Shown here one piece after another: positions 38 to 34,782 of a stretch of DNA of 64,000 nt. The notes under the pieces are model-generated. The model saw nothing but the letters and a program-made list of their open reading frames with translations, was not told where the DNA came from and made no database searches. Source of the stretch: a virus (lineage: Duplodnaviria; Heunggongvirae; Uroviricota; Caudoviricetes). The translations under genes and the position numbers were made by a program. Each line of letters begins with the position of its first letter. The stretch's first letter is position 1. The stretch lies in the IMG/VR virus record IMGVR_UViG_3300030616_000569; one strand, written 5' to 3'.

Positions 38-634
38 ATGGAACTTGGTGGAGCATCACTGCTTTCAGATGATGCTAGAACTGAAGAATTCCATATTGAT
101 CCAAGAAGTGGTTATCATGAGTATACGATACCGATAGAAGAATTTAAAGATCTTGTGATGTCTGATAAACTAATTGCTGTTGATATTGGAGGTGAAGCGT
201 CTGATATCCATAAAGTCCCAGGTGTTTTATTCACTGAAGAGGGATATGTGGTAAGGTCTCCATGGCGTAAAAATATGGAGCCAAAAGAAATTATTGAAAA
301 AAATGATCCGTATTATATCGAAGAAAGTAATGTCCACAAAAGAAAGGATATTCCAATTGTAGAGTCAGAATATTATGACAATTATATAAAGAAACCAGAG
401 TATGTTGAACTATCATCAAAACAAAGATTAAAAGGCGACAGTGCAAAAGAAATCGTGAAGAAATTACAAGATAAATATATGAGTGAGTTACTTATATCAA
501 CAGATAGTAAGAGTGAGGCAAACGAAACGATGAACCTCGTCAAAAATAGATATGCTAATAGATTCAGTGATTTTGCTTTGGTTGAAGGTGATGGATTATA
601 TGAAGTGTATGGTATTAAAGGAGATATTAAATGA
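38..634 (+). CDS. hypothetical protein
   Basis: 198-aa ORF in six-frame track; acidic/Lys-rich, no recognisable motif; TGA stop overlaps next start (ATGA). Confidence 0.5.
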   Translation: MELGGASLLSDDARTEEFHIDPRSGYHEYTIPIEEFKDLVMSDKLIAVDIGGEASDIHKVPGVLFTEEGYVVRSPWRKNMEPKEIIEKNDPYYIEESNVHKRKDIPIVESEYYDNYIKKPEYVELSSKQRLKGDSAKEIVKKLQDKYMSELLISTDSKSEANETMNLVKNRYANRFSDFALVEGDGLYEVYGIKGDIK

Positions 635-1737: not shown

Positions 1738-2142
1738 ATGACAAAAAATAACATAAATAGAAAATCAGGCTGGTATAATGAACCAAAACGACATTCTCTT
1801 GCTAGACGTGGTATAAAAACAACAAATAATAAAACTGATATAAAAAAACCTGATTGGGTAGAAGCATATAAAGTAGAATCCCAAGAACCTTACAAGACAT
1901 GGGTGAATGATAAATATGGAGACCTTAGTGTAAGTATCGATTCCAGAGAGCATTTAGAATATGTCGGTGTTTTACCTGAGTTAATGAATTACGATGATTG
2001 GGAATGGTTAGTTTGTTTGGAAAACCAAAGGACTGGTAATACACAATTCTATAAGGCACAAAATGAAAATGATGCTGTTTTAGTCGCAAAAGAATTAATG
2101 GACGATGATATTGCATTGGAACAATTTAGTAGAGGATTTTGA
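1738..2142 (+). CDS. member 1 of N-terminal GW(Y/H)NExxRHSLAxRGI motif family
   Basis: N-term MTKNNINRKSGWYNEPKRHSLARRGIKT; GGTGA SD-like upstream; C-terminus unrelated to paralogs. Confidence 0.7.
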   Translation: MTKNNINRKSGWYNEPKRHSLARRGIKTTNNKTDIKKPDWVEAYKVESQEPYKTWVNDKYGDLSVSIDSREHLEYVGVLPELMNYDDWEWLVCLENQRTGNTQFYKAQNENDAVLVAKELMDDDIALEQFSRGF

Positions 2143-2483
2143 TAAACATGACAAAAAAGTCTGTAAACAATAAAGGCTGGTACAACGAGTCAAAACGACA
2201 CTCATTGGCTTCAAGAGGTATTGAAACAAAGCCATTCAAAACAGAGATAAAATATCCTGATAAATTTGAAGATGTTCCTAGTGTAGAAAGTCTGTCTAAG
2301 ATTAATCGTTCTATTCATGGTGATTTAGTATCAGTGACAACATCTGGTAGATATATATGGAGAAATAGTGATGGTCTCTACAGTATTACTGAAGAAAGAG
2401 ATGGACATGTTTTAATGAAAAATATTTACCCAATCGACATAGTTGAGTTATATGAAGCTTACGAAAATGCTGAATGGAAATAA
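2139..2483 (+). CDS. member 2 of conserved-N-terminal-motif family
   Basis: N-term ..NNKGWYNESKRHSLASRGIET; ATGA overlap with upstream gene. Confidence 0.7.
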   Translation: MINMTKKSVNNKGWYNESKRHSLASRGIETKPFKTEIKYPDKFEDVPSVESLSKINRSIHGDLVSVTTSGRYIWRNSDGLYSITEERDGHVLMKNIYPIDIVELYEAYENAEWK

Positions 2484-2505
2484 TAAAATTACTTAGGGTA
2501 CTAAT

Positions 2506-3012
2506 ATGTCTAAAGGTTGGAGAAATGATTCTCATCGTCATTCTTTGGCTTCAAGAGGAATCCAAAGCACACTAAATGTAGAAACACCAATTTCAATACC
2601 ATCATATTTATGTGAATATAAACCAATCGAGAAAGGTGAGATTGAGCCACTTATTTATCCAGTAATTAAAATCCTTGAAGAGAAAGGATATGAAACAAGA
2701 TACTCATGTCAAGGTCACTCACCAGGTGAATATGGTAGTCAAAACAGAAAATCATATGGTTATGAAGATTGTTATATAACCTTTAGAACTGAACCAGAAC
2801 TTGTTGATTTGTTCGAGAGTTGTGGTTTCGAGATTGAAGAGATCGGTAGACCTCGATTCTCTGAATATACTGCTGATAATTACTCTAATGCAAGGATACA
2901 CCCATCAAAGTATCATTATCCAAAGAGATATATTGATCGTGTAGAATTGTGGGGACATGTCTATGATTTAGCAAGGAAATTACCTGATAGTGATTATAGT
3001 GATAATATATGA
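2506..3012 (+). CDS. member 3 of conserved-N-terminal-motif family
   Basis: N-term MSKGWRNDSHRHSLASRGIQST; Cys/His-rich C-terminal domain. Confidence 0.7.
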   Translation: MSKGWRNDSHRHSLASRGIQSTLNVETPISIPSYLCEYKPIEKGEIEPLIYPVIKILEEKGYETRYSCQGHSPGEYGSQNRKSYGYEDCYITFRTEPELVDLFESCGFEIEEIGRPRFSEYTADNYSNARIHPSKYHYPKRYIDRVELWGHVYDLARKLPDSDYSDNI

Positions 3013-4583
3013 AATATAAAGCATTGATAATTGTGATCATAGTTATAATAAGTTCAATATTCTTATATTCTAATATAGATAACTCTAAATATCAATATCT
3101 TACTTATGAAATGTATCTCCAAGGTGCTGGATCTGTTCCTATCTATGGAAACACAAACACAACAGATATACCACCACCTGGTCTTTACGATAATATTGTG
3201 GATATTGATGATATGGGATCTGTATCAGCTGATTATTTATTAGATGTTCCACCAATACTTTGGAATGACGGTTGTGCACCAACAGCAGTTGGAATGGTTA
3301 TGTATTACTATCATGATGTTTATGACTTAAACACAGTGAAAAATACTGTTGATGACACAGTATCTAGTGTTGAACATTATAATGACTATTCTATACCAAT
3401 AGATGAGCCTGGTGATTTAGAACCAGATAACTCATGGTATTATTCAGATGCACATCCTAATAATTGTATTGCTGATTTTTCTCACACTTCTAGATATATA
3501 GATTCAATGTCATATGGTGAAACAACAATCGAAATGACATTAAGTGGTTTGAATGACTATCTTGTATCTATGGGTTATGATTATGTTACATATGTTAGTT
3601 TTTCATATGAAACAAGTGACAATGATTACATTGTGCAACAACTGATGCATGGTAGACCAGTGCTTCTATACGTTGATGTTGTTGGTAACGATGGTCTCGT
3701 TGATCATGCAATAACGTGTTGTGGTTATGGTTATAATTTTTTCGGTGATCTCTATTTTAAGATATATGACACATGGAGTGAAACACCAGTGAATATATTT
3801 CCAGATGAAATCGGTGATGTAGATAAATGGGGAATCTATAGTGTGATGGTCCCAAATTTCGGTGATATAACAGATTCTGACGGTGATGGTTGGGCTGATG
3901 GTATAGATAACTGTCCTCACACTGCTAATCCATCACAAATTGACTCTGATGGAGATGGAATAGGTAATCTTTGTGATGATATAGATGATACTGACTCAGA
4001 TTCAGATGGTGTTCGTGATGATATAGATAATTGCCCAAACACATATAATCCTGATCAGTATGATATAGATAATGATGGTATCGGTGATTCTTGTGATACA
4101 TGTACAGATTGGGACAATGATGGCTATTGTGATGATACTGATTGTGATGATTATGATAATAAAGTGTTTCCAGGTGCATATGAGATATGTGACGGGAAGG
4201 ACAATGATTGTGATGGATTCATAGATGAGGGATGTGACTCAACAAAAGACACAGACTCAGATGGAGTATTAGATATCAATGACAACTGTCCATATGTTCC
4301 TAATCCAGATCAGTCGGATATTGATGGTGACGGAATAGGTGACAAATGTGATGTTGATGATGGTGATACACCACCTGATGGTCAAATCTATTGCTACAAA
4401 TGTAGTGGTGATGTAAGAATACGAATGTTGCATACTGGTGACAAATGTCCAGATGACTGGGTGGAATATCCATTGACTTGTGGTGACACATATCCGGATA
4501 CTCCAGATACTCCTGGATTTACTATGATTGGATTATTTGTATCTATAATATTGATTGGTATTTTGTTAAGGAGAAGAAGATAA
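3009..4583 (+). CDS. secreted papain/C39-like cysteine peptidase with thrombospondin type-3 (Ca-binding) repeats and PGF-CTERM archaeosortase sorting signal
   Basis: N-terminal signal anchor; putative catalytic Cys in WNDGCAPTAVGMVMYYY and His in LVDHAITCCGYGY; repeats DSDGDGWADGIDNCPHTANPSQIDSDGDGIGNLCDD and DxDNDCDG metal-binding motifs; C-terminus ...DTPGFTMIGLFVSIILIGILLRRRR = PGF + TM + basic tail. Confidence 0.65.
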   Translation: MKYKALIIVIIVIISSIFLYSNIDNSKYQYLTYEMYLQGAGSVPIYGNTNTTDIPPPGLYDNIVDIDDMGSVSADYLLDVPPILWNDGCAPTAVGMVMYYYHDVYDLNTVKNTVDDTVSSVEHYNDYSIPIDEPGDLEPDNSWYYSDAHPNNCIADFSHTSRYIDSMSYGETTIEMTLSGLNDYLVSMGYDYVTYVSFSYETSDNDYIVQQLMHGRPVLLYVDVVGNDGLVDHAITCCGYGYNFFGDLYFKIYDTWSETPVNIFPDEIGDVDKWGIYSVMVPNFGDITDSDGDGWADGIDNCPHTANPSQIDSDGDGIGNLCDDIDDTDSDSDGVRDDIDNCPNTYNPDQYDIDNDGIGDSCDTCTDWDNDGYCDDTDCDDYDNKVFPGAYEICDGKDNDCDGFIDEGCDSTKDTDSDGVLDINDNCPYVPNPDQSDIDGDGIGDKCDVDDGDTPPDGQIYCYKCSGDVRIRMLHTGDKCPDDWVEYPLTCGDTYPDTPDTPGFTMIGLFVSIILIGILLRRRR

Positions 4584-4648
4584 TATGTCACATAGTGATC
4601 TAATAGATATTAGTGATGGTGTATTCAATTTAATGATGAGGATATTAT

Positions 4649-5260
4649 ATGGTAAAAATGACAAATAACAACCGTGGTTGGTACAATGAGTCAAAAAGAC
4701 ATTCTCTCGCTAGACGTGGTATAAAAACAGATTCTAAATTAAGGACTCATTATAGAACAATTGATTTTAATGACGATGGGAGTCCATACGAAAGTAATGA
4801 TTATGATAGCTTTTTTAAATATATCGAAACTAAGAGGATTCAGACACCTGATAGGATGTACCATATGACAAGCAAAGAGAACCTCAAAAAGATATTAGAG
4901 AATGGATTCATTATGCAAGAAATAGATTCAGATGATAATTTTATTGGACGCCCAAATGGTACTTATTTTGCTGGTACAATGACTGGTGCAGTATCAGCAA
5001 CAGCGCATAGGGAACCTGACTCTGTGATGTTAGAAGTTGATACTAGAGATATTGAAATGAAGATGGATCCTATGTATTTCTATTTTTTTGATGGTTGTGG
5101 TAATATATATTCAAAAGAAGAAATTGATGTTAGAATAAAGGAAATACTTGATAGTCCTAATGCTATGTGGACTTACACAAGAGAACCAATAAATAAGGAC
5201 AGGATCATTAAAATATATACGTGGGATGAACTACCAAGACATGTTCAAACAGTTGGTTAA
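4649..5260 (+). CDS. member 4 of conserved-N-terminal-motif family
   Basis: N-term MVKMTNNNRGWYNESKRHSLARRGIKT; 203 aa. Confidence 0.7.
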   Translation: MVKMTNNNRGWYNESKRHSLARRGIKTDSKLRTHYRTIDFNDDGSPYESNDYDSFFKYIETKRIQTPDRMYHMTSKENLKKILENGFIMQEIDSDDNFIGRPNGTYFAGTMTGAVSATAHREPDSVMLEVDTRDIEMKMDPMYFYFFDGCGNIYSKEEIDVRIKEILDSPNAMWTYTREPINKDRIIKIYTWDELPRHVQTVG

Positions 5261-5261
5261 T

Positions 5262-5861
5262 ATGTCTAAAGGTTGGCACCGTGAGCCCTATCGTCATTCC
5301 TTAGCTTCTAAGGGAATCCAAACAAATAAAAATGTAATTACCCCTATCCATAAATTGAATCAGCCAATAGCATCAAGATTTGATGATATTACTGATAATC
5401 CATATATTGATGGGTGGATTCTTAGTGATGGTAGAAAATATGATACTGGACCACATCATATGTCAGTTTCTTCTGCTCTTCCAAAGTCGCAAGAACTTCA
5501 ACAAATGATTGATGATCCATCTATCCCAAATGATGAGTTAAATGAGATTTGGGAAGTTGAATGGGAGCAAATATCAGGTTGGCAACATAATTCTGGTTCT
5601 ATAGTATATGAATTTGAAAATATTGGTTACAAGAACATTCCTGAATACAAAATGAGAATTATAACTGGCGAGAAGCGACCAACGAATGAACAAATTGCAT
5701 TAATAGCATCTTATATACGTGAAGCACAACCATCATATATTCATATCATTCGAGCAGATAAAGGTATGTTCAATGGTGAACCAGAAATGTACACAGGTGA
5801 ATATGAAAAAACCAACCCAAAACCAATTGATTTACAAATAGCAATAAGTAAGTTATGGTAA
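5262..5861 (+). CDS. member 5 of conserved-N-terminal-motif family
   Basis: Track ORF starts 5226 but motif-aligned start MSKGWHREPYRHSLASKGIQT at 5262 lies directly after upstream stop (5258-5260). Confidence 0.65.
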   Translation: MSKGWHREPYRHSLASKGIQTNKNVITPIHKLNQPIASRFDDITDNPYIDGWILSDGRKYDTGPHHMSVSSALPKSQELQQMIDDPSIPNDELNEIWEVEWEQISGWQHNSGSIVYEFENIGYKNIPEYKMRIITGEKRPTNEQIALIASYIREAQPSYIHIIRADKGMFNGEPEMYTGEYEKTNPKPIDLQIAISKLW

Positions 5862-5966
5862 AATATAAAAGAAGGTAGTAAAATGATAGGAACAATATTA
5901 TCAATGAAATATGTAGGAAAAGAAGGGTGGGCAAGATCAATATAATTTTATTAAGGAGAAAGAATT

Positions 5967-6464
5967 ATGTCTAATGGTTGGCACAGAGAATCCAAACGTC
6001 ATAGTTTAGCACGGAAGGGTGTTAAGACTGCAAAAAAGAATGATATTGATCCTAGAATACCGAAGACACCATTAACAAGATATGATATTGAAGATTCTGT
6101 TGAATATGTGAGATCTAATAGAGATGGCAGAATGCCACTTTGGTCGCAACTGATGGCAATATTTTCTGATGATCAAAACCAATTTGAAGTTATTATCAAT
6201 GATTATGGGTGGGAATTATATTCTGATGATGAATTGTTTGGATTTTCATCTAGAAAAAATCCACATAAGACAATTACAATTTCAAACGATAATTCAGTAA
6301 CAATCTTTGACCATGATTTTTTTGGAAAGGATGCAAGGATTGAAGATGCAAAAAATTTTTATCAGATACACAAATTTGATACAGTCATTGAAGCGAATGC
6401 ATTTGCATTCCAACAATTAGCATCTGATATAAAAGAGAAGGATAAATTAAATTATAGGAGATAA
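5967..6464 (+). CDS. member 6 of conserved-N-terminal-motif family
   Basis: N-term MSNGWHRESKRHSLARKGVKT; AGGAG SD upstream. Confidence 0.7.
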   Translation: MSNGWHRESKRHSLARKGVKTAKKNDIDPRIPKTPLTRYDIEDSVEYVRSNRDGRMPLWSQLMAIFSDDQNQFEVIINDYGWELYSDDELFGFSSRKNPHKTITISNDNSVTIFDHDFFGKDARIEDAKNFYQIHKFDTVIEANAFAFQQLASDIKEKDKLNYRR

Positions 6465-6469
6465 ATGTC

Positions 6470-6910
6470 ATGAAAAACAACCGTGGTTGGCACAATGAGT
6501 CAAAACGTCATGCTCTGGCAAGAAAGGGGATTTCAACGAAATCTTCATCTAACACACCAATAAGGACACCTTCGCAAGCACCTTCATATACAGTAGAGTA
6601 TCGGTATCCTATGTATGTCAAATTGGAATTTGATAATTTTCCCGAAAAGAGTTTCATGAAATTGAGAAAATGCATAAATTCATCGGTCGGTGAAGAATAT
6701 ATAACATTTACTGATAGGTGTAGCTTGTATTCAATAGAAAAGCAAATGAATGATTACATTATTATTAGAAGAAATTGCAATAGGATGAATAATATAGTGT
6801 TCATAGATCTGGATTATGAAATCATAGATAGTGCTGATACGTTACAAATGGCACAAATTAAATTGCGTGAACAGACACAACTAGAAATAAATGGAGTGCA
6901 ACATGACTAA
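6470..6910 (+). CDS. member 7 of conserved-N-terminal-motif family
   Basis: N-term MKNNRGWHNESKRHALARKGIST; AGGAG SD upstream. Confidence 0.7.
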   Translation: MKNNRGWHNESKRHALARKGISTKSSSNTPIRTPSQAPSYTVEYRYPMYVKLEFDNFPEKSFMKLRKCINSSVGEEYITFTDRCSLYSIEKQMNDYIIIRRNCNRMNNIVFIDLDYEIIDSADTLQMAQIKLREQTQLEINGVQHD

Positions 6911-7172
6911 AGGATGGAAAGGCGACTCATATAGGCATTCTTTGTCTTCAAGGGGTATACCAAATGCTAGACAAGAGGTCAAGACATATCAAGCGAGATT
7001 TAATCCAGAAGTGCATAACTTAAATCCTCCAGTGACAGAGTGTCCAACATGTGGATCGAAATTTACAAAACGTGGTTTTTCAGATGAGTGTCCACAGTGT
7101 GAATATATAGACGATCAGTTATTTGGTGAAGATCTTCCAAGGAGAAAGCAGGAGAAATTAGAGGTGATTTAA
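6891..7172 (+). CDS. member 8 of conserved-N-terminal-motif family with C-terminal Zn-ribbon
   Basis: ..MTKGWKGDSYRHSLSSRGIPN (probable start at M 6903); CPTCGSKF...CPQCEY zinc ribbon. Confidence 0.6.
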   Translation: MECNMTKGWKGDSYRHSLSSRGIPNARQEVKTYQARFNPEVHNLNPPVTECPTCGSKFTKRGFSDECPQCEYIDDQLFGEDLPRRKQEKLEVI

Positions 7173-7438
7173 TGGGCGGAATACGTGGACTATATATAGG
7201 TAGACCAGCATTAGCTGGCGGAATAACATTCTCGTTATTTCTATTCAGAGCAGTTTATACATATAACAAACATCCAGTTATAGAATTCTTCAATGATCCT
7301 ATCGTTGTGTTTCTGTGTTTTCTAGTAGCTGGTGTTGTCATGACATATCCATACATGAAAGGTTGGAAAGCGATCGTTATAACACCATTGATGGTTGCAC
7401 TGATGCTTTTCTTCGTATATACATACTATATTTTATAA
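7172..7438 (+). CDS. small polytopic membrane protein
   Basis: 88 aa, three hydrophobic helices; ATGA-type overlap with upstream gene. Confidence 0.5.
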   Translation: MGGIRGLYIGRPALAGGITFSLFLFRAVYTYNKHPVIEFFNDPIVVFLCFLVAGVVMTYPYMKGWKAIVITPLMVALMLFFVYTYYIL

Positions 7439-7470: not shown

Positions 7471-10400
7471 GTGATCAATATGAAATATATAATATATATT
7501 TGTATTTTTTTTCTTGCAGCATTCTTTATGATTAGTTCAGATATGATATCAGCGTCTATACCAGATTCACACGATGAAAATACATTATCAATGAATACAT
7601 TTTATAATTCTTTTGAAGAACATGATCAGTTTGTAGATACATCGCCATGTGGTGTAACAGATTCATACCACATGTCATCTTTCTATGATAATTATCTATT
7701 TACAATTGATACAAATTGTGTGTCAAATTATCTTCGTGCATTCCGTATAAACAACGGTGATATGACTCCACTATATGCAAAAGGAACTAGATATGTTGAA
7801 CTCGGATCAAAGATATTAGGTATGAATGCATCACTGTTTTTTGTGTATCAATACCAATGGAATGTAACACAAAATCAACATAGAATCATAGTTATGAAAT
7901 ACAATACGGTGAATTCTTCTTTTTATACATTGGATTCTGTAGATGTTGATTATGAAGTTGATTATATCAGTCTTGGAAAGCATCCAGCACTCGGTTGGTA
8001 TTTTTATCCATTTCTTGATAATGATAGTGGTGGTTATGATAGTGCTTTCTATGTATACAATGGTGTAGATATTTACAAATATCCTGTTGCACAGCAACAT
8101 TACAATACAGAAATAAAAGCAGCCTCTAACTACACGATACCAAATGGTGATGATAGATCAACTCCAATTTTTGTCACTGATTACTCTATTTATAGTCTAG
8201 CATCACTGGGACTAACTTATCAATCTGGTCAACTTGTGCATGGTGGTGTTGGTGCTCATGATATCGAGTGTGTAGATTACCATGTCATTGTTGCAAATGG
8301 TCATTATGTAGAAACATATTATATATATGAAGGAGGAATACCATTTAATTATACAACTTGTGATCTAGGATCTGATGTGAGATCTATAGCATTTCAAAAT
8401 AGCACTGTTGTTGCTTGCACAAGATATGATGGTATTTATGCATTTGATTTGAACAACACTGGTGAGTTGAATGAGATTGCGCATCTCACATATGACGACA
8501 TTGGTGGTGTGCAATTGTTGTCAAATGCAATATACAAATATGATTATGTTATAACAGGATGTCTTAATTTAGCAGCTGGAACAAGTACATCTATATTTTC
8601 GTTTGAGCAATTTGACTCAGATAGAATTGTGACAAAGTCATATGAGAATATAACAACTGAATATTATTCTGTCGTGAACAAGACTTCTCCAATACTGGAG
8701 GTCCCAATGACTTATAATGTATCTGGTATAAATGAAGTTAGAGATCATACAACTGGTGAAACACTTTCAAAATCAAAAAAACTATCTGATGTTGTGAATG
8801 GGACATATTTCTATGATGTTGCATCTAACACTGTTTTTATAGGTACTGAATCAAAAACAATCGGTGATTATACATTTTATTCAGTAAATGCATCAAGAAA
8901 TTATGATCTTGATATTAATTTTCCTCTATACCTAGAAGTTGGTGACTATTATCAAGCAAGTGGATATATAACTGATCCATATGATACATTGATGTCTAAT
9001 TTTGAATATAGGGTGAACATCACTTGTGATGATGAAATTGTCATTGGACCAACATACTATAACTGTTCTGATGGTCTTATAAACATTCTCTTTTCTACCA
9101 ATATATTACCAGCAGATGAGTATATTGTTGCTATAGACTATAGAGATATGTCAAGTGGTGTGACATATACAGATGGTCATACATTTTGGTTATCAACAGA
9201 TCCAGATCCTGGTGTTTATGTTACAAGTAATGTTCATTTTAATTTTTATGATTCTAATAAAGGAACTGGTTTAGAATCAAATTTGTTCAAGATATACACA
9301 TCAACAAATTATAGTAATTTTACTGGTGGTCGTGTTTATCGTGACAACATTAAGTCACAGACGTGGAGCTTGATAAATTACAAAGTGTTAGATTATTTTG
9401 ACAATCAAATATATCCACCAATAAATGAAGGTACTTATACAACTGTTGTTGTTACATCAGTTGATTATTTTATTGATATTCCAATAAACTGGAATACTTA
9501 CTCAATAAAAAATATGAATCATTCAATCATTCGTTTTAATCTGACTAATGGGTCAAGAACAAATTCTGTATATCTTTATCCATATGAACCATATTACATG
9601 TATCTATTAAATGCTACATACACTCTTAACATAACATATTACACTGATGACAAAACAGTGGTTGGATATCTGCAAGAGAATATAACAATAGATGATGATG
9701 ATTTCTATTTTGTTCCTGGATATGATCTTAGGGATGTTATAGAAGATATCAAAAAACTAGAGAATAGGTCGACAATTGTCTTCTCATTTTTTAACACAAA
9801 TGCTGGATTGGGTCTTGATCGTGAAACAATGAAAGTATATGTTAATGGATCTAGATTGATAGGTGATAAATATTACACATACAACGAAAGTGATCTTATC
9901 AATGTTACAGTGCGTGATTACTATAACAACACATTATTCATTCGTAATTATTATATAAATTCAACAGTTGTTTATATAGATGTTGGGCTGACATTCCACT
10001 CTTATGTGTTTGGTAATCTTGACGAAAAATGGTATATGTTATCATTCAAGAAGGATGGTGCAACATATTGGTGGGAACGTCCAATTGTGACAAACAGCAA
10101 TTGTGAATTTTTGTTACCAACTGGCACATATCGCCTTCGTATTTATGACAAGCATTATACAGAGATTTATAACGCATCTGAAGCTATATCGCAGTCAAAA
10201 GGTTATATTATATATGGCGAGAACTTATCGCTTGTAATTGCTGGTTTATCGACTGTAAACGGACATATTTTGACACTCTTAGAGGATTTTGAGCCAGATA
10301 TTGTACAAGTTGGTTGTAATCTTCCAAAGGTATATTCGATATTCGATATTCTAGGATGTTCAAATACACAGAATATCACTGAAATCTGTCCTGCACAAGT

Positions 10401-11517
10401 TCTTATGGCAACCACATATAGTAAATACTGGTCAAATGATACAATCAAATCATTCATTCCTAGAAATAATTCAGAGAATGGAACAATCTATACTCTTGAT
10501 GATATCTTGATATTTGAAGGACCTGATTGTGATTGGGTTAACATCACTTATACCAATAACGGAACTAAAATTCAAAATACATCATATACTCCAAATCAAT
10601 ATGATCTCGGAAAAACACAACATAATGTAACTGTTACTGTAAATGCTTCTCACAATATAACAATAACAAGAAAGACAAGATACCAACAAGTGCAGGACTT
10701 CTATTGGACAAAATATCTTGATGAGAATAAATATCAAGCAACCGTAGAATTTAATAATCCTTTGAATGACACAGTTTGGGATTGTTATTATATTATTATG
10801 TTTGCAGATGATGACACACCTGATTATAGTACTGTTGTCGTGCATGATCAAACAAATGATGTTGATCTTGATGAAGGTGAACATTATGATTGCACAGCTG
10901 ATGGTATACATTTGATGAACGACTATATTGCTGCAAGTGGATCAAGATCCTATAAGTGTACATATTATTCACAAACTGAAAATATACAGTCATCTGATGC
11001 GATAACGAAGGTGTCTATCCCTGATAGAATGACTGTTTATGATAATCAGAATTATTACTATATGGATGCACAGTGGACTAACGATAGATCTGATCCATTT
11101 ATTGGTCAAATACATATAAAGTTCGATTTTGAGGTTACTCCTGGAATGATTTCACCTTCCACAATCGATATTTGGGATGAGATAAATAACAGATATTTAG
11201 ATGATGACGAGTTCACATACACAGGTACAAGTATTATAATCAGCCAAGAATCAGTTGGCACAGTACAATCAGGATCAACAAGGATATATAAGATATATTA
11301 CTTAAATGTAGAGACAATAAATAGTGTAGCTGATGATTTCTTTGAATCTGAATTTGCTGGTCCAATTCTTTGGATTCATGTTATTGATATTGTTATCGGT
11401 GCAATAGCAATTATGTCAGTGTATGGAAGTAAAAGAGAAAACTTCAAAGACAAGTTGTGGATATTCTGGTTGTGTTTAATTGCATTATTCTTCATAAATA
11501 TGAGGTATTACTTATAA
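7471..11517 (+). CDS. giant secreted cell-surface protein (1348 aa), N-x-S/T sequon-rich, C-terminal TM anchors
   Basis: N-terminal signal peptide (IIYICIFFLAAFFMISS), dozens of NxS/T sequons (NVT, NST, NIT...), two C-terminal hydrophobic helices; no catalytic motif. Confidence 0.7.
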   Translation: MINMKYIIYICIFFLAAFFMISSDMISASIPDSHDENTLSMNTFYNSFEEHDQFVDTSPCGVTDSYHMSSFYDNYLFTIDTNCVSNYLRAFRINNGDMTPLYAKGTRYVELGSKILGMNASLFFVYQYQWNVTQNQHRIIVMKYNTVNSSFYTLDSVDVDYEVDYISLGKHPALGWYFYPFLDNDSGGYDSAFYVYNGVDIYKYPVAQQHYNTEIKAASNYTIPNGDDRSTPIFVTDYSIYSLASLGLTYQSGQLVHGGVGAHDIECVDYHVIVANGHYVETYYIYEGGIPFNYTTCDLGSDVRSIAFQNSTVVACTRYDGIYAFDLNNTGELNEIAHLTYDDIGGVQLLSNAIYKYDYVITGCLNLAAGTSTSIFSFEQFDSDRIVTKSYENITTEYYSVVNKTSPILEVPMTYNVSGINEVRDHTTGETLSKSKKLSDVVNGTYFYDVASNTVFIGTESKTIGDYTFYSVNASRNYDLDINFPLYLEVGDYYQASGYITDPYDTLMSNFEYRVNITCDDEIVIGPTYYNCSDGLINILFSTNILPADEYIVAIDYRDMSSGVTYTDGHTFWLSTDPDPGVYVTSNVHFNFYDSNKGTGLESNLFKIYTSTNYSNFTGGRVYRDNIKSQTWSLINYKVLDYFDNQIYPPINEGTYTTVVVTSVDYFIDIPINWNTYSIKNMNHSIIRFNLTNGSRTNSVYLYPYEPYYMYLLNATYTLNITYYTDDKTVVGYLQENITIDDDDFYFVPGYDLRDVIEDIKKLENRSTIVFSFFNTNAGLGLDRETMKVYVNGSRLIGDKYYTYNESDLINVTVRDYYNNTLFIRNYYINSTVVYIDVGLTFHSYVFGNLDEKWYMLSFKKDGATYWWERPIVTNSNCEFLLPTGTYRLRIYDKHYTEIYNASEAISQSKGYIIYGENLSLVIAGLSTVNGHILTLLEDFEPDIVQVGCNLPKVYSIFDILGCSNTQNITEICPAQVLMATTYSKYWSNDTIKSFIPRNNSENGTIYTLDDILIFEGPDCDWVNITYTNNGTKIQNTSYTPNQYDLGKTQHNVTVTVNASHNITITRKTRYQQVQDFYWTKYLDENKYQATVEFNNPLNDTVWDCYYIIMFADDDTPDYSTVVVHDQTNDVDLDEGEHYDCTADGIHLMNDYIAASGSRSYKCTYYSQTENIQSSDAITKVSIPDRMTVYDNQNYYYMDAQWTNDRSDPFIGQIHIKFDFEVTPGMISPSTIDIWDEINNRYLDDDEFTYTGTSIIISQESVGTVQSGSTRIYKIYYLNVETINSVADDFFESEFAGPILWIHVIDIVIGAIAIMSVYGSKRENFKDKLWIFWLCLIALFFINMRYYL

Positions 11518-11533
11518 TATTGGAGTTGATATA

Positions 11534-12130
11534 ATGAAAAGAAATATTCAAAGCCCAAGGAAAAGCAATTCATCCTGGAAGATTAAGGGAAGTGCAATGA
11601 TTACAACAATTGTATGTTGTTTTGTTGTTTCTATGGTGTATGTTTCAATTACTCATGTTGGTATGGATCCAAGAGATTGGAGAGCATTAGGTGCTGATGC
11701 TTCTCCTGGATATGGTAATTGTGGTATCCTCAATATATTTATCTATCCACATTCTGCTGATCCAGCAACCACATATGCTAGCAACTGCTCAGAAGGAACA
11801 GCATACGCTTATGGAAACTCTCTAAACTCATCTTTGACAGGTAATGTTCCATTTCACACTTCATTTGATATAGTGTTGAAATACAGATTTAATGCATCAG
11901 TAGCTTATTGTGAAACGAATACAACGTGGATGATGAGCTGGGTCAATTATACAATAAGATCCCCAAATCTTGCGATCAACGCTAATACTACAATGCAAGA
12001 AGTCCAAGTAACCGCAAATAGCACATATATGGAAGTACAATTCTATATTAATAATGCTGGTAATGGATACAAGATAACACATGGTCAGCAAGTGAATGTG
12101 ACACACAATACACCATATGCATTCTGGTAA
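11534..12130 (+). CDS. membrane-anchored secreted protein, sequon-rich
   Basis: 198 aa; TM helix ITTIVCCFVVSMVYVSI; multiple NxS/T. Confidence 0.55.
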   Translation: MKRNIQSPRKSNSSWKIKGSAMITTIVCCFVVSMVYVSITHVGMDPRDWRALGADASPGYGNCGILNIFIYPHSADPATTYASNCSEGTAYAYGNSLNSSLTGNVPFHTSFDIVLKYRFNASVAYCETNTTWMMSWVNYTIRSPNLAINANTTMQEVQVTANSTYMEVQFYINNAGNGYKITHGQQVNVTHNTPYAFW

Positions 12131-12135
12131 TCTTA

Positions 12136-15100
12136 ATGACAAAAAAGAGATTTGGTGACTACACTTCTTTTTTTCTTACTCTTTTAGTGTGTAGTACACT
12201 TGGCACAAATCTTGTCATTCCTGTAGTACAAAGAAAAAACGATTTTATTGCTTCAGCTGAGATTGACCCATGGATTATTGATGGTGATACTGTTTATATT
12301 GATGATACAAATGTTTATGCTTCAGCAACACCACACACATTAAATGGCGACGATGAAGTCGTATTTGAATTCATGTCGAAGACATATTCGGGTGATATAG
12401 ATATAGCATGGGGATTTGATACAACCGTCATGAAACCAACTGGGATATCACTTTGGCAGAATTATGTACATAATGTGTCTTATTTATCAAAAGAACAAAA
12501 ATGGGGATGTACGACACTTTATAATGTAACTGCTATAAATCCACTTGATATCAGTGATTATGATTTGTATGATGTTTTTCTAGGTAATGAAAATAACACA
12601 TTTCTTTATGAAGTGACACATAACTGTGATGATTCAGGTGATGTAAAACAGATATACGCATTCAGTGATAGATCACCAAGTGGTCCATATACACCAGGTG
12701 TTAATTACACTATATGTGGCTACTATACGACAACAGTGATACGATCATGTGATGAAACATATTTCGATTGGAAAGATTGGGATATTGATTATACACATGT
12801 TGATTGGGAACACGAAGGAATGACAGATTGGTATGTTATCTCTGATATTCCAGTTGTTTCTGGTATCACTTATAATTGTAGTATCAATATGACTATCCTA
12901 GATTATAACAATGGGACAATTGATGGAAAATATTGGTTTGCATTTAAACCATCTTCTGAGACTTTATCAGAAGCATATTCAAATGGACATCTCTATGCAC
13001 TTGATCCTTGGTATGATGCTGGTTGGAGTCATAGAATTAACATTTCTCTTAACAGCAGTCAAGTCGAAAAGACTATGAAGGAATTCCCAGTTCTTATAAA
13101 CATCACTAATTCTAGTCTTTCTTATTTTGCACAAAGTGATGGTGGCGACATTCTCTTCACTGATTCTAGTGGAAGCAAATTATATCATGAAATAGAAGAT
13201 TATGATTCATCAAATGGAGAATTGGTTGCTTGGGTAAATATTGATACACTGACATCTTCTGTTGATACTAACATCAGTATGTATTATGGAAATCCAACAT
13301 GTGGTAATCAGTGGTCGGTTGCAAATACTTGGAACTCTGGATATTATCTAGTCCAGCATCTTCAGGAGACGTCTGGAACGCACTATGACTCAACATCTAA
13401 TGATGCTGATTCAACATCATTATATCTCACTGCACAAGGTAGTGATTATGTTATTGCAAATGGTGGTGATGATTTTGAAAGAACTGATGTGAATTATATA
13501 CTTTTTTCTGATCCTGGTGATTTTAATACATATACAATTGAGCTTCTTATTAAACCAGAATCATTGAATAATTATGAGACAATACTTGGTAAATATCAGA
13601 AATTTCATTTAGATACACAAGCAGATGCAAGATTAGCATTTTCAGTAGAGGGTACAGGGGGTGCTACTTTGACAAATGCATTGACTGCTGGATCATGGCA
13701 TTATTGTTCTGCATCTGTTGATGGTGCTACCTGTAGATTGAAATGTAATGATGATTATCTACCAAATAGTTGTACAGGAAATCTTGATATTGATTTTGCC
13801 ATTGGATTTAGATCTGGATATTGGCGTGTTGATGCTTATGATGGTCTTGTTGATGAAGTTCGTATCTCAGATGTTTGCAGAAATACAAGTTGGATAAACA
13901 CAACATATAACTCAATAATGAATGCAACAGATGGTGGGTTTTTCCTTCTTGATGCACAAGAGGAATTAGACGCAGATAAACCACAAATTTCTTATGTGTT
14001 TCCAACACCACAAAACCTGAATTTTTCAAATGTTTGGGATTATGTGAATATAAACACTTCTATAACAGATACAACCAACACATCTTCTTTTATTGATTTT
14101 AATACTTCATTGCTTGGGTACTGGAATTTTGAGTATACGAACTCTACACATGTGTTTGACAACTCTACTCATGATCATCACGCAAGATTTAAGGGTGGTA
14201 TAGATGAAACTGATATATCAGCTGGTATCCGTGGTGATTGTATGGATTTTGATGGCACAAGCGAGTGGTTACGAGCACCAAATGATATAGCAAAAAATAT
14301 GACAGAGTCATTCACATGGTCTGTTTGGATCAAAACAGCAACAACGTCTCAAGATACAATAATTGGCGTAAATCCAGCGAATGGTGCAAATAGATATATG
14401 TTATTTGTCACAGCAACAGGTGTTTTATCACTTTACTCTGGAGATGCTCACCATTATACAACGGTAACTGTCAATGATGATATTTGGCATCATATTGTTG
14501 TTACAAGAGATCATGAGACTGGTTATAACAGATTTTATATTGATAGTGTCCGTGATGATACTGGTAACTACACAACAACATCACACATTGAATCTACTGA
14601 TAATGTTAGTATTGGCCAAGAATTCGACGGTGCTGCTGCATCTGATTTTTTCGATGGATTAATAGATGAAGTTGCAATGTTTAACAGGACATTGTCATAT
14701 GATGAGATAAAATCATTATATAATAGTAGTGATTATTCTCTATCAAATAATTTCACTTCTCTAAATGAAGGAACACATACATATCAGACATATTCAATTG
14801 ACAGATCTGGTAATTTTAATATAACATTACTTCGTGAGTTTTATATAGATCTTTTTTATCCACACATATCATTTAATGAGCCTCGTGATGAAAAATATAT
14901 TTTTAAAGATAAAGATTATGCTCTTATTGATGTTGATGTGACTGATACACATAATACATCTACTTTTTTTGATTGGTGTAATTCTCTTACAGGATATTAT
15001 TCTTTTGATAATCACAATGCACATTATGTTAATGATAACTCTTCTTATGACAGAAATGCATCATTTATAAATGGTAATCTTCAAGATGGTAATTTTACTA

Positions 15101-18100
15101 TTGCAAAATATGGTGAAGGACTTCAATTTGATGGTGTAGATGATACATTAAACATATCAACAAGACAGGTAATCTCATCTGAGGGCACAGTAGAATTTTG
15201 GGTAAAATTTGATGATGTGACGAAAGATCAGATGGTTCTCATTGGTGGTGCACGTGGTGCACAAGCAAAAGGTACATATGACTGTGGGTTTATTAGATTA
15301 AAAGGATCTGATAGTAAGTTATATGCTGGATTTTATTCATCAGGTGATTTCGATAACACATCATCTGACAGTGCACTTGTTGCTGATACATGGTATCACA
15401 TATCGCTCATTTGGTCAGATAGGACAAGATTGAGGATTGATACAGTTCTTCAATCAGCCAATGATGTATTCACAAATGTATTTACTTATTGGATAGATGA
15501 TTTTGTGATAGGTAGAACAATGGCAGGTGCTGTTAATGATATGTATTTCGATGGCAAACTCGATGAGCTTCGATTTTATAACAGATCATTATCACGTGAC
15601 GAGTTAAATGCTTCCTATAATGAAGCACTATATCCATTTGTTGAAAACTACACTGGATTATCCGAAGACACATACTCAATGCGTATCTTTTCTATAGATC
15701 AATATAGTAATCTAAATATTACTCCATTAAAAGAGCTTCTATTTGATTGGACATATCCTCACATTTCATTTGTAACACCACCGACACCGAACAATAACTC
15801 ATATGTCGATGCAAATCGTGATTATATTAATGTGACAACTTCTATAAGTGATGTGCATGACACATCGTCATTTATTGACTGGAATAACAGTTTGGTTGGG
15901 TATTGGTCTTTTGATTTTGTTGAGTCTATAATTGCATATGATAATTCTTCGTATTTGAATAATGGTAGATTAATAACAATGACGACAGATAATATCACAG
16001 TAGGTATAAGAGGAAATTGCAGTGATTATTGTGCTTCGTTAGGTTCTTCGATACGTGTTGTGAATGATGATTCATTGTATTCAACACCAAACAACCAGTG
16101 GACTATTGCAGCGTGGATATATCCAGATGTATTTTCTGGCAATATGGTAATAGCAAGGAAAAAGAGTGATGGTGGAGCATACTTTATCAGACTTACTTCA
16201 GACGGAGAGTTTCAGTCATTACTCCATTTTAACACTGATTCATATACACAAATAAGTGCTGGTGACATCAATTTGTCAGAATGGAATCATGTTGCAATGA
16301 CATATGATGGGTCATATAGAAGACATTATATCAATGGTCAACTTGTGAAGAAGCACACAGATGCAAAAACACTAGAATTTTCTTCAGATGGTGATTTCTA
16401 CATTGGTTGTAATGATGGTGTAAGTGAGTATTTCGATGGAAAAATAGATGAAGTGATGGTATTTAACAGATGTCTTTCATATGGTGAAATCAATTCAACA
16501 TACAATAGTTCTTCATATGCACTCTACCACAATTTTACTTCACTATCAGGAAATCATTATCCATATCGTATTTATTCGATTGATGAAGCAGGACTTCTCA
16601 ATATAACACCAGTAATGAATTCTTATATCAATCGTCTTCCGCAATTCTCTAATGAGTTTCCATTGAATAGCACTTATTATTATGATATGAGACCAACTGT
16701 AAATGTAACAATTGTTGACGCTGATAATCAAACATTGAATGTTACAGTGTTGATCAATGCATCTGGGTCATGGACTAATGTTGACAATATATATGATTAT
16801 AACTATACAGTAAGACAACTTGATGCAGCTTATAGATGGATGTTAGATGGTGATACTGTAGAATGTATTGATTCATTCCCTAAAACAAGTGGTAATAATC
16901 CTGATAATATAACAGGTATTATTCCATGTGGTGTATTTCCACTAGCAAAGACATTTGATGGCACTGAAAAAATTGGTCTTGGGTCAAAAGCAGGTGTGAA
17001 TACTGATACTACATTAAATAGATCTTTCAGTGGTTGGTTTTCAACAAGAGAAATAGATACCAACAGTAATGGACGTATCATATGGGAAGAGGGTGGATCA
17101 TCAAACTCTATTGTCCTCTATGTTCATGAAGAAAGCGGTGAAAATAGACTATACCTTGTCTGTACAGAAGGAACAAGTATAGACTATGTCTATTATCCAA
17201 TCGAAGAAAATAGGACATATCACGTTGCCGCAACAATTTGTCATCCAGATCAAGAAATGAAACTTTACATCAATGGATCTCTAGTTGCATCTGATACAGA
17301 TGGATTCGCTACTGGTGAAATAATGGCTGCACACTCTGATGGGTGTTGTATTGGTGGACCAAATGGAAGTCCAGATGGATGGGATGGTAGTTCTGTTAGC
17401 GGTTATTTTAATGGTGTTATTTCAGACTTTATATATTGGCCAAACACATCTAGTATATTAACAAGTAGCCAAATTAGTGACATCTATATGTCAGGTTCAG
17501 GTAACTACTCATATCTTTATGATAGTGCAGATGAGGCCAACACAAAATATTATTGGAGTGTATATGTTAATGATGGTGTCAACAACATAAGTCAAGTCTA
17601 TCATTTCAACACTGGAAACAGATCATTCAAAAAAACTACATCAAGTGGATACTTTACTTTTGGGAATTTTTCTTCATTCAAAAAGACATCTTCAACTGGA
17701 TATTTTACTTTTGGCAATTTTAGTAACTACAAGAAAACTTCGTCAACTGGCTATTTCACGTTTGGAAACCTTTCATATAATAAAAAAACGTCTAGTACTG
17801 GGTATTTTATATTCGGAAACTTTTCTTACTTCCAACGGACGAGTACGGTCGGTTATTTCACGTTTGGTAATTTTTCGTCTTTTCAGAAAACTACACCAAC
17901 TGGTTATTTCACATTCGCTAATTTCAGTTATTTCAAAAAGACTTCACAATGTGGATATTTTACATTTAATACATCAAATCGTGGTGATGTATCTATTGAT
18001 GTTGATTATGAAGGTATCGTGGCTGTATTAACACCTCATTGGGATTATTCAATAACACAGTATATGTGGAATGTCTCAGAAAATGATGGCATATACAATG

Positions 18101-18501: not shown

Positions 18502-20096
18502 TAATAATGTCAATATATAATATAATGGAAGATAGCCATATCAAAAAAACAATAAGTTTATTTGTCGTGTACTTGATGGTAATTTCAGTAGCAGGTGTCG
18601 TGTTTTATTTTACGTCAGATACTATAGCAAAGGGTGCAACAACAAGTGATTTTGACCATTGGCAAGAGATAACTATATCATCAGCGAAAGTTGGAAAGAC
18701 ACTTCATGATTTTCCAGTTCTCGTGTTCAACAACTCGTGGGTGATTGGGCTTGTTAGCAATGATTTCACATTTTTTCAACCAGATAATTCAACAGAATGT
18801 AATTGGGAATTAGAGAGATATAACACATCAACTGGTCAATTAATTGCTTGGGTAAATATTACAAGTGTCAGTGCTGATACTGATACAGTATTTTATATCT
18901 ATTGGGATGATGATGGAGATGGTGGTGAAAACAACCCAACAAAGACATGGGATAAAAATTATGTAACTGTATTTCACATGGATGGTGAATCAACAACTGA
19001 AGATGATTCTTCTACATATGGAAGAGATGGAACGATAGATGATTCAAACGTAAATCGTTCAAATGGAAAAATTGGATACTCACAGGAAAATCAAAATGAT
19101 AATGGTTATATTGACATATATGATTCATATGGAATATTTGACGGTGCTGCTGATTTTACGATTGAGGCTTGGGTTTTAAACACAAATCTTGGTGAAACTG
19201 ATTGGTTTTTGAAGTTTGGTGGAGAATGTGATATTCATATAAAAGTTGATGGTGACGATAATAACGATGACATTTATCTAAGAAATCTTCAAGGAGCAGC
19301 TTGGGTAAATATTGTCTATGCAACATCTATAACAGCTGATACATGGTATCATACAGCAATTGCATATGATGGTGATACTGGTTATAATCTTTATCTCGAT
19401 GGTGTTGTTGATGCAACAAATGCAGAACATGGTGCAATAGATGGGAATAATGCAAATAATGTTATCATGAATGAAGATTCTGCTTCAAATGGATGGGACG
19501 GTCGTTTTGACGAATTTCGTATATCTGATATACAACGTAATTCTAGTTGGATAAATGCAATATATAATAACACAAATGATCCATCTACATTTTTGTCTTT
19601 TGGTGAAACAAAACGTGATACTTCTCCAAGTGTTACAATGACTGATATGTCTATGACAGTTGAAGGTCAACAGAGCGAAATTGTTTATGCTAACTCATCT
19701 GGTTCTGAATATCAAACTGGTGTTATGGCGATTGGTATATTAGGAACAAACTATCTCGAAAGAATAACAATAAATGTTTCTGATATTGATGATGGAAATA
19801 TAGATGGTGATGACATATATGTACAATTTGATAACGATAACGTAAGCTGGTCTTCTAATTGGCTTCAATGTTCAGATGGTGGTACTTCTATTATAATCAA
19901 TGGCACAGAATGGGACACAAATGCCTATATGAATGGTGCTAATCCATTTACTGCTGATAATGATGGTGATGGATATGATGAGATACAGACGAATGTTAGT
20001 ATCTATATGAAGGTAAAAATGGTCATACCTAGTGGCATAGTAAATACAACATATACGAACAATGCAATGACATGGGATTCAGGAAGATATTCATAG
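18498..20096 (+). CDS. membrane-anchored LamG/ConA-like domain protein
   Basis: N-terminal TM; motif GRFDEFRISDIQRNSSWINAIYNNT paralogous to the LamG motif of the 2121-aa protein; ATGA overlap. Confidence 0.6.
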   Translation: MIIMSIYNIMEDSHIKKTISLFVVYLMVISVAGVVFYFTSDTIAKGATTSDFDHWQEITISSAKVGKTLHDFPVLVFNNSWVIGLVSNDFTFFQPDNSTECNWELERYNTSTGQLIAWVNITSVSADTDTVFYIYWDDDGDGGENNPTKTWDKNYVTVFHMDGESTTEDDSSTYGRDGTIDDSNVNRSNGKIGYSQENQNDNGYIDIYDSYGIFDGAADFTIEAWVLNTNLGETDWFLKFGGECDIHIKVDGDDNNDDIYLRNLQGAAWVNIVYATSITADTWYHTAIAYDGDTGYNLYLDGVVDATNAEHGAIDGNNANNVIMNEDSASNGWDGRFDEFRISDIQRNSSWINAIYNNTNDPSTFLSFGETKRDTSPSVTMTDMSMTVEGQQSEIVYANSSGSEYQTGVMAIGILGTNYLERITINVSDIDDGNIDGDDIYVQFDNDNVSWSSNWLQCSDGGTSIIINGTEWDTNAYMNGANPFTADNDGDGYDEIQTNVSIYMKVKMVIPSGIVNTTYTNNAMTWDSGRYS

Positions 20097-32871: not shown

Positions 32872-33003
32872 AAACAAAAAATTTAAGTACCAATATAAGA
32901 TACTTTTATATAAGTACACAAATCCACACAAAATCCATTGAAAATAGGATATGTTAGTATCAGATTCCATTAATTCTTGGTCGTGGCTCTTTGTGTACAT
33001 AAT

Positions 33004-33078
33004 AAAGAGTTGTTTTAGCTTGGTCTATTCTCCTGGACCCATAATCCAGGGACAGAGGTTCAAATCCTCTACTCTTTA
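33004..33078 (+). tRNA. degenerate tRNA-like element / possible tRNA pseudogene or att-site remnant
   Basis: Perfect 7-bp acceptor (AAAGAGT/ACTCTTT), canonical T-arm AGAGG-TTCAAAT-CCTCT, anticodon-like stem CCTGG/CCAGG, but 9-nt loop and extra nt between acceptor and D-stem. Confidence 0.3.
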
Positions 33079-33084
33079 TAAATC

Positions 33085-34779: not shown

Positions 34780-34782
34780 TTT

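Follow-up and report, generated by a model that had tools for sequence, protein, structure and literature searches.

A conserved peptide tag on arrays of otherwise unrelated proteins: a candidate address signal of uncultured virus-like elements

Conserved terminal peptides that serve as an address on diversified effectors are a known kind of system. PIP boxes, RXLR and PEXEL are each one short terminal motif common to many functionally different proteins, large effector repertoires bear a conserved N-terminal address, and the peptides that load encapsulins and microcompartments are short, terminal (N or C) and partly helical, and address different enzymes inside one shell. The capsid-targeting sequence (CTS) of phage T4 is about 10 residues long and ends in the prohead-protease site Leu/Ile-x-Glu. 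The T4 internal proteins IPI-III, which are hypervariable, clustered and host-directed, have only this short N-terminal CTS in common (PMC3012670), and T4 also packages an ADP-ribosyltransferase, Alt (PMC5512222). Polyvalent proteins are likewise thought to be delivered by phages and conjugative elements along with their DNA (PMC5512222). Here we describe a peptide of this general kind in a 64,000-nucleotide stretch of viral metagenome DNA (IMG/VR record IMGVR_UViG_3300030616_000569; the whole stretch is called the window below). Tandem genes in the window share a ~22-residue peptide, M-x-K-G-W-x-N-E-S-x-R-H-S-L-A-x-K/R-G-I-K-T (the tag), attached to different proteins (the cargo, meaning the rest of each tagged protein), and this tag is absent from the libraries and records that we tested. 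We propose, with a probability of roughly 0.65, that the tag acts as a docking or address peptide through which all cargos share a single receptor.

The ORF list of the window contains eight tagged open reading frames (ORFs) between positions 1738 and 7172, all on the + strand:

1738-2142, + strand: member 1, 134 aa, acidic orphan cargo; tag codons 1768-1821
2148-2483 (ORF opens at 2139), + strand: member 2, 111 aa; tag 2175-2228
2506-3012, + strand: member 3, 168 aa, Cys/His-containing orphan cargo; tag 2515-2568
4649-5260, + strand: member 4, 203 aa, possibly Tpt1/KptA-PARP-like cargo (weak hits); tag 4676-4729
5262-5861 (ORF opens at 5226), + strand: member 5, 199 aa from the ATG at 5262; tag 5271-5324
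5967-6464, + strand: member 6, 165 aa; tag 5976-6029
6470-6910, + strand: member 7, 146 aa, RHALA variant; tag 6485-6538
6903-7172 (ORF opens at 6891), + strand: member 8, 89 aa, CxxC…CxxC zinc ribbon cargo; tag 6912-6965, the most divergent copy

A reading made earlier from the DNA letters (the sequence-only reading) had described these as eight paralogues with a common N-terminal motif, one of them carrying a zinc ribbon (member 8), and all eight are present, with G-W-x-x-(E/D)-(S/P)-x-R-H-(S/A)-L-(A/S)-x-(R/K)-G-(I/V) situated 3-10 residues from the start Met in every member. The motif expression given in that reading was too strict, since copies exist with D in place of E, with RHALA or RHSLS, with GV, and with S or N in place of T; its length range of 93-211 aa becomes 89-203/211 aa when the likely true starts are used. 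A six-frame scan of the 64 kb found no tag copy beyond the eight, and a degenerate DNA pattern for the tag matched the window eight times, compared to 0.00 matches expected from 100 shuffles. Analysis of the codons under the window tags revealed that 178 of the 307 codon pairs for identical residues (58%) differ, and nucleotide identity among members was 65% under the tag versus 32-33% in the flanks. Thus, as the sequence-only reading had argued from synonymous differences under the motif, the constraint on the tag acts at the level of the peptide and not of the DNA. Its further claim, that the C-termini are unrelated, also held, since BLASTP detected no similarity among the C-terminal parts of the window members.

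The net charge of the window tags is +3 to +7 (24-residue segment), and in many members a stretch rich in Lys and Arg comes next. The eight window cargos are uniformly acidic (pI 4.3-5.3), and none contains a hydrophobic segment; a pI below 5.5 was found for 38% of the other window proteins, and the acidic bias is not seen in the cargos of other loci. A 'salt-in' halophile host, prompted by the acidic cargos, was considered and rejected, because the window proteome is bimodal with a median pI of 6.2 and cargos elsewhere are not acidic.

Searches beyond the window revealed a large family. A word-indexed search with the tag alignment returned 13 short metagenome proteins, and an exhaustive tag profile search of 1.84 billion cluster representatives, of the type that the sequence-only reading had proposed, recovered 3,191 clusters (50% identity) at E≤1e-3. 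The matching proteins range from 30 to 670 aa and nearly always carry the tag at the N-terminus, and those cluster members that were looked up were unnamed and known from metagenomes only. At the DNA level, the tag pattern was found in at least 120 stretches of JGI metagenomes and in two IMG/VR viral contigs, where the six-frame scan counted at least 7 copies in one and at least 11 in the other. Only seven contigs in 185,579 species genomes contained the pattern, and the metagenome-assembled genomes to which these belong are labelled Woesearchaeota, Methanosarcinales, euryarchaeote, 'archaeon', WOR-3, Burkholderiales and Ectothiorhodospiraceae, a set of mutually inconsistent taxa that is the usual sign of mis-binned mobile DNA. 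The tag family is nearly absent from cellular genomes and occurs only on contigs resembling mobile elements. Altogether, the DNA-pattern scan identified the tag-plus-variable-cargo design at at least 139 loci with 451 members. Two or more members were present at 103 of the 139 loci, never on mixed strands and with a median spacing of 644 bp, and the largest arrays contained 17 members in 10.8 kb and 15 members in 9.2 kb. The loci with arrays range from 28 to 57% GC. Further array-bearing elements include the 91-kb ZHAN22-2 scaffold_77 and the IMG/VR records UViG_3300035701_000031 and UViG_3300029267_002600.

Despite this abundance outside the locus, the tag matched no characterised domain: no match was found in Pfam at E≤10, in NCBIfam, PHROGs or PDB (profile searches), or in INPHARED phages (tblastn), the only match in PLSDB plasmids was at chance level (tblastn, E=2), and full-text literature searches for 'RHSLAARG', 'RHSLA' and DUF5661 returned nothing relevant. 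Apparent resemblances to eS30 ('HGSLARAGK'), the arginine-rich arm of lambda N and Kemptide gave negative scores or, for Kemptide, no match, and were set aside as noise. Neither of the outcomes that the sequence-only reading had named as counting against it, a match to a well-characterised domain or a family confined to this locus, was observed.

In contrast to the tag, the cargos are highly diverse. The 366 complete cargos formed 258 BLASTP clusters, 208 of them singletons, and only 5 similarity links were found within loci versus 169 between loci. Because the cargos within an array differ, the arrays reflect the tagging of different proteins, not gene duplication; the proteins within one array are distinct, and cargo types found in one array turn up again in others. 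Together with the number of loci and members, this strongly supports the proposal of the sequence-only reading that an N-terminal targeting module is joined to variable cargo. The length from tag to stop codon has a median of 178 aa and a maximum of 664 aa, and about 85% of cargos lacked any match. The largest cargo cluster, DUF5661, has 14 members, with at most one per locus among those listed, and further recognised cargos include GNAT acetyltransferases, winged helix-turn-helix (wHTH) proteins, nucleotidyltransferases (Pol-beta), DUF6876, DUF4241, DUF7417 and a matrixin-type peptidase. A minimal ATP-dependent DNA ligase has been fused to the tag twice independently, in unrelated loci (L069, 390-1301; L145, 13401-14561), the second of which also encodes a tagged lipocalin domain (18614-19177), and weak evidence points to a ParB-like cargo domain. 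The 'LYHGT' cargo family resembles the NAD-binding lobe of Tpt1/KptA. The cargo of member 4 in the window ('MYHMTS…NGF') gave weak but concordant Tpt1/KptA-PARP hits (Pfam, 0.042; PHROG, 0.001; NCBIfam, 0.0094), suggesting that it groups with the eight other members of the 'LYHGT' family in a putative ADP-ribosyltransferase fold. A homologue search for this cargo found only itself, its single-sequence AlphaFold2 model was unusable (pLDDT 30), and a search of cargo sequences against PDB returned nothing. A thrombospondin-type-3-like loop (DxDGxPDxxDCxPxNPKKQ) occurs once, shortly downstream of the tag, in some members (P0039, P0076, P0085, members of loci L025 and L073, and L001 4955-5986).

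These data bear on whether an address is needed to explain the arrays at all. The genes are tandem, and runs of ~21 identical nucleotides, seen by inspection in some copy pairs, could support cassette shuffling, as might be expected if the members were ordinary paralogues that arose by duplication and fast divergence, or if the conserved 60 nt were a recombination handle or translation-control element acting as DNA or RNA. However, 65% nucleotide identity and 58% synonymous codon differences are difficult to explain in this way, the tag occurs at C-termini too, and the unrelated known folds among the cargos (GNAT, ligase, lipocalin, papain-like, wHTH) indicate that the cargos did not diverge from one ancestor. 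We consider an origin of this kind highly improbable.

The properties of the tag itself suggest a docking peptide. Its consensus in 151 proteins is M-x-K-G-W-[RKHYF]-N-E-S-x-R-H-S-L-A-[SRA]-[KR]-G-I-K-T-[GA]-[QR]-K, in which G, W, R, H, L and G show no variation across the 151, a set biased towards the query. An AlphaFold2 model of member 2, made with a tag-anchored alignment, had a pLDDT of 83-88 over residues 11-40 and predicted Gly-Trp, one short helix (residues 14-22, E-S-K-R-H-S-L-A-S) and then Arg-Gly-Ile; beyond the tag the model was poor, and a fold search with it gave no match below E=0.5. The tag is sometimes duplicated in tandem, or placed at the C-terminal end of small proteins, either membrane or soluble (P0011, P0016, P0032, P0094, P0138), which argues that it is an autonomous module and not a classical signal peptide; independence of position and occasional duplication are features that a docking peptide would be expected to show. 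Some lineages have a longer tag, with 'KY…' added upstream and an 'NYAK'/'YxAxK' element downstream.

Comparison of the 18 arrays with at least six members revealed tag residues specific to individual arrays, for example EPARHALAAKG in L005, DSWRHSL in L008, GESRRHSLSRKGIKTN in L009 and GESHRHYLAAKGI in L114. Depending on the array, tag position 6 is W, F, Y, H, A, R or K. Identity at the non-invariant tag positions was 0.51 within arrays versus 0.35 between arrays, and 51% of the within-array identities are encoded by different codons, so recent gene conversion fails to explain the array-specific versions. The tags of one element thus all seem to be constrained, at the protein level, to a single lineage-specific version, predicting one shared, co-evolving receptor per element. 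We propose that the Gly-Trp, a three-turn helix and the Gly-Ile-Lys-Thr turn would form an autonomous docking peptide, which the elements would place at the start, or occasionally the end, of different accessory or effector proteins, 5-17 in each genome, and that these proteins would all gather at one common receptor.

The array-specific residues also bear on whether the tag might instead be a nucleic-acid-binding arm, in which a basic Trp helix would bind DNA or RNA and tether the cargos to nucleic acid of the element or the host, possibly entering particles passively. Such an arm would account for the charge of +3 to +7 and the Lys/Arg-rich stretch that follows in many members, for the invariant Trp, Arg and His, which are typical contact residues, and for the enrichment of nucleic-acid enzymes among the cargos, and tandem duplication would increase avidity; short, strictly conserved DNA-binding peptides exist, such as the AT-hook core. 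Nevertheless, array-specific tags fit poorly with unspecific contacts to a nucleic-acid backbone, for which invariant Leu and Ile and selected array-specific residues are unexpected. In addition, the tag did not score against the lambda N arm or eS30 and had no HhH, AT-hook or other Pfam match at E≤10, and no repeated DNA or RNA element that might be a specific target was found in the window. Overall, we regard a nucleic-acid-binding arm as quite unlikely.

If the tag is an address peptide, what is the destination? The recognised cargo repertoire overlaps that of polyvalent proteins (GNAT, Pol-beta nucleotidyltransferase, ParB-like, ART/Tpt1-like, peptidase and DNA-binding domains). Lipocalins and C10/C39-like peptidases normally belong to secreted families, and on one representative of each, the lipocalin of L145 and a metagenome peptidase, P0003 (compared with an untagged peptidase of the window described below), the tag stands in place of a signal peptide. 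Moreover, the commonest array neighbours in other loci encode giant PKD, lectin (Laminin_G_3) and beta-helix proteins, and arrays placed among such giant adhesin- or fibre-like genes probably adjoin a structural or adsorption module. The T4 precedent, the effector-like cargos, the replacement of signal peptides and the position amid giant adhesin-like genes together suggest that the tagged proteins may be loaded into a transmissible particle, a proposal to which we give about one chance in three. Through such a particle the tagged proteins would enter the next host cell with the DNA, where they could act on the host.

Several observations weigh against loading into a particle. The particle itself is assumed, from IMG/VR calls and two PHROG structural hits, and no capsid, portal, terminase or prohead protease was recognised with Pfam or PHROGs in the scanned window ORFs and 109 neighbouring proteins, scans that covered all but 31 kb of the source contig and used libraries in which archaeal virus capsid proteins are poorly represented. 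The tag shows neither similarity to the T4 CTS nor an obvious cleavage site, and tagged DNA ligases and small membrane proteins would be untypical packaged cargos. Finally, the tag is better conserved than any other gene common to these elements, and the window element and the other loci have only the lectin domain in common. A receptor in the particle would need to be equally conserved, which a universal host protein would explain more simply.

Such a host protein could be a conserved hub (clamp or replisome, RNA polymerase, ribosome or proteasome) to which the tag, as a short linear motif, would bring viral enzymes. PIP boxes, for example, recruit ligases, nucleases and polymerases to PCNA, and eukaryotic ligase I has its PCNA-binding peptide at the extreme N-terminus. 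A hub would fit a tag kept across elements that have almost no other common genes and range from 28 to 57% GC, and the two independently tagged ATP-dependent DNA ligases would suit a replication hub better than a particle. Many other cargos are also of the nucleic-acid type (ParB-like, nucleotidyltransferase, wHTH, Zn-ribbon, Tpt1-like), the tag can occur at either protein end or in duplicate, its invariant Trp, Leu and Ile resemble the hydrophobic anchors of a protein-protein motif, and the array-specific residues could follow host-lineage variants of the hub. On the other hand, peptidase, lipocalin, GNAT and membrane-protein cargos would be odd clients of a DNA-bound hub, the tag is unlike PIP, APIM or catalogued motifs and has no Pfam or PDB match, and no cellular protein with the tag was found in the species genomes scanned, although true hubs generally serve cellular clients that bear the same motif as well. 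We judge recruitment to a host hub unlikely, but the most probable of the alternatives to particle loading.

Whichever destination applies, the tag is among the better conserved features of environmental 'dark matter' and yet is missing from every annotation library tested. Its 22-residue profile provides a simple handle to find the elements and to flag fast-evolving accessory or effector genes, and the tagged genes are the most likely place to look for new counter-defence or host-takeover functions in archaeal systems. With somewhat less than even odds, we suggest that the tag and its receptor constitute a widespread new protein-addressing system of uncultured virus-like elements, probably archaeal, with up to 17 interchangeable effectors per genome. 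If the receptor lies in the particle, this would be the first example outside T4-like phages of co-injection directed by a CTS-like peptide. The tag would then offer a natural, programmable handle for protein delivery and could serve to load foreign proteins, much as GFP and other foreign proteins have been encapsidated by means of the T4 CTS (PMC3012670). A host hub as receptor would instead add a new short linear motif for takeover of archaeal hosts.

A third possible role for the tag was suggested by the gene that separates members 3 and 4:

3009-4583, + strand: non-member, cysteine peptidase of papain type (C10/C39_2-like); TSP3 and MopE repeats; hydrophobic anchor at the N-terminus, PGF-type anchor at the C-terminus

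The sequence-only reading had pointed to C39 peptidases as processors of leader peptides, and the tag might accordingly be an export leader cleaved by this peptidase during secretion. The presence of a papain-like peptidase within the window array and the replacement of signal peptides by the tag on two cargo families are consistent with this role. On its Pfam scores we assign the protein to the papain-like peptidases of clan CA; Peptidase_C39_2 barely exceeded its cut-off (24.8 versus 24 bits), whereas Peptidase_C10 scored better (29.3 bits, cut-off 26), and there is no fusion to an ABC transporter. The protein tail, …PDTPGFTMIGLFVSIILIGILLRRRR, resembles by eye the PGF-CTERM signal of archaeosortase A substrates (Pro-Gly-Phe, a hydrophobic helix and a basic tail; TIGR04126), and no PGF-CTERM model was among the NCBIfam matches at E≤1. 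With two membrane anchors the peptidase is predicted to be extracellular, whereas the members have no hydrophobic segment. Even at E≤10, none of the remaining 138 array loci yielded a homologue, and a homologue search with the catalytic region returned nothing. Its 'GCAPTA' catalytic Cys region does align with P0003, in which the related catalytic region bears the tag itself, indicating that such a peptidase is a cargo type and not the processing enzyme. The peptidase is thus an accessory protein of the region and not a conserved array partner. As the tag also lacks a double-glycine end and the cargos are enzymes of 90-660 aa, not peptides, the leader-processing proposal is largely refuted, and we give it very little weight. 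The untagged peptidase contains several copies of the same kind of thrombospondin-type-3-like repeat that is found singly after the tag in some members.

The window comes from a metagenome contig of 98,148 bp (ENA ERZ27252234 k141_2182633), and the array extends upstream of the region in which the sequence-only reading had placed it. Members do lie at 1738-7172, but these positions are not the array limits, and the peptidase is the sole non-member inside 1738-7172 but not in the whole array, which is interrupted by two more genes:

38-634, + strand: ninth member, C-terminal part only; the full gene encodes 343 aa, with its start and GW-RHSLA tag ~400 bp before the window begins
631-918, + strand: non-member, small membrane-anchored protein with two dockerin-like (EF-hand-like) repeats; weak EF-hand hits, N-terminal hydrophobic segment
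923-1729, + strand: non-member, membrane or secreted Cys-rich cohesin protein (Pfam Cohesin, 1.1e-05, 26.1 bits)

The ninth member corresponds to L001 4955-5986, which reads DNRGWHNESKRHALASKGIKTKRD… and continues into window positions 38-634. Five further members upstream of it on the source contig bring the array to at least 14 members in ~12 kb. All three interrupting non-members (631-918, 923-1729 and 3009-4583) are membrane or secreted proteins. We read the repeats of 631-918 as dockerin-like by eye, and with the adjoining cohesin gene at 923-1729 they could form a self-contained docking pair within the tag array.

Downstream of the array, the window contains the following features:

7172-7438, + strand: small hydrophobic protein closing the array after the last member (ORF list, hydrophobicity)
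7471-20096, + strand: three giant surface proteins of 1,348, 2,121 and 532 aa, the last two with Laminin_G_3/ConA-like lectin, pentaxin and DUF2341
30155-31138: Zot-like P-loop ATPase, upstream of the tRNA cluster
31572-32435: SPFH/Band 7 protein, upstream of the tRNA cluster
33291-34475: ARPP-1 domain fused to a winged helix, at the start of the tRNA cluster
43100-63836: sugar-modification cluster, including sulfotransferase, methyltransferase, UDP-GlcNAc 2-epimerase, CBS-epimerase/dehydratase and QueC/Asn-synthase-like proteins

Every credible gene in the 64 kb is on the + strand, with short − strand ORFs nested in longer + strand ORFs or in the tRNA cluster; the cumulative GC skew climbs steadily over the entire window, and G+C is 30-39%. 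The 2,121-aa protein contains six tandem repeats of 51 nt (17 aa) at 17623-17967. The tRNA cluster (33003-41207) contains 21 genes detected by ARAGORN and three more by Rfam, covering nearly all amino acids, a set unusually full for a 98-kb element, and the same short sequence (…CACTATG) follows several of the tRNAs. Two Rfam tRNA matches, at 34645-34779 and 37765-37890, have lengths of 126-135 nt, pointing to tRNAs of archaeal type that contain introns. The sugar-modification cluster also encodes two MptE-like proteins, one fused to an HMGL-like domain, and suggests that the element makes or modifies a nonulosonic-acid-type glycan. We read the source as a virus-like mobile element; because of the intron-like tRNA insertions and the PGF-type anchor on the peptidase, its host is probably an archaeon. 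A tblastn search of phages with a P-loop ATPase and a 431-aa ORF identified no hallmark capsid or terminase genes.

Some neighbours are conserved in other loci. A P-loop ATPase lies beside the arrays in 13 loci, including L139 (6610-8118, array-strand orientation), L021 (4299-6293) and L048 (1-2859); in several of these an intein is inserted beside Walker A, and LAGLIDADG homing-endonuclease hits occur among the neighbours. The same element group has a Cas4-like nuclease (L007, 2250-3119) and a small primase-polymerase-like protein (L094, 12008-12547), both in array-strand orientation and assigned from motifs by eye.

Comparison with known systems separates superficial from closer parallels. 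The sequence-only reading had likened the tag to the N-terminal domains of polymorphic toxins, an analogy that fails because the members lie back to back, with few interleaved ORFs and no interleaved immunity genes. Polymorphic toxins also differ in that the tag matched no trafficking domain (LXG, PAAR, RHS, WXG; Pfam E≤10) and that the cargos include non-toxin folds (ligase, lipocalin, wHTH). Like double-glycine leaders and their C39 peptidases, the arrays combine a conserved N-terminal peptide with, in this one window, a nearby papain-like peptidase gene. However, the conserved end of the tag is G-I-K-T-(G/A)-(R/Q)-K, with no double glycine after it, and the cargos, unlike double-glycine bacteriocins, are large and include enzyme domains. 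Unlike a peptidase-containing ABC transporter (PCAT), the peptidase carries TSP3 and MopE repeats and anchors, has no ABC domain and is not conserved with the arrays.

The cargo-loading peptides of encapsulins and microcompartments are closer in form, as short terminal peptides on different enzymes, but they load few cargo types and are dissimilar in sequence, and no encapsulin (Linocin_M18) or shell gene was found among the 25 most frequent of the 42 neighbour-scan families or in the window scans. Similarly, PIP-box, RXLR and PEXEL motifs provide a conserved terminal address on diverse proteins, with no sequence resemblance to the tag, and differ in that no cellular client proteins carry the tag.

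The T4 CTS, to which the sequence-only reading had also compared the tag, is the best functional parallel, although it stands as an analogy only: neither sequence similarity nor a capsid or prohead protease was found. In both cases a conserved N-terminal peptide is the sole common part of otherwise unrelated clustered proteins, and, like Alt, one window cargo looks ADP-ribosyltransferase-like. In contrast to the CTS, the tag is about twice as long, strongly basic and sometimes C-terminal, its consensus contains no Leu/Ile-x-Glu and does not resemble the CTS, and it occurs in arrays of up to 17 members. Our scans, moreover, found no prohead protease, scaffold or capsid gene, and the elements are probably archaeal, not T4-like. 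Polyvalent proteins have an overlapping domain repertoire, and both systems suggest early effectors delivered with the DNA; there, 2-15 domains are joined in one giant polypeptide, whereas here each tagged gene contributes one cargo domain. The logic that we propose would thus combine that of the T4 CTS, acting on hypervariable internal proteins and Alt, with what may be an 'unlinked' version of the polyvalent proteins of phages.

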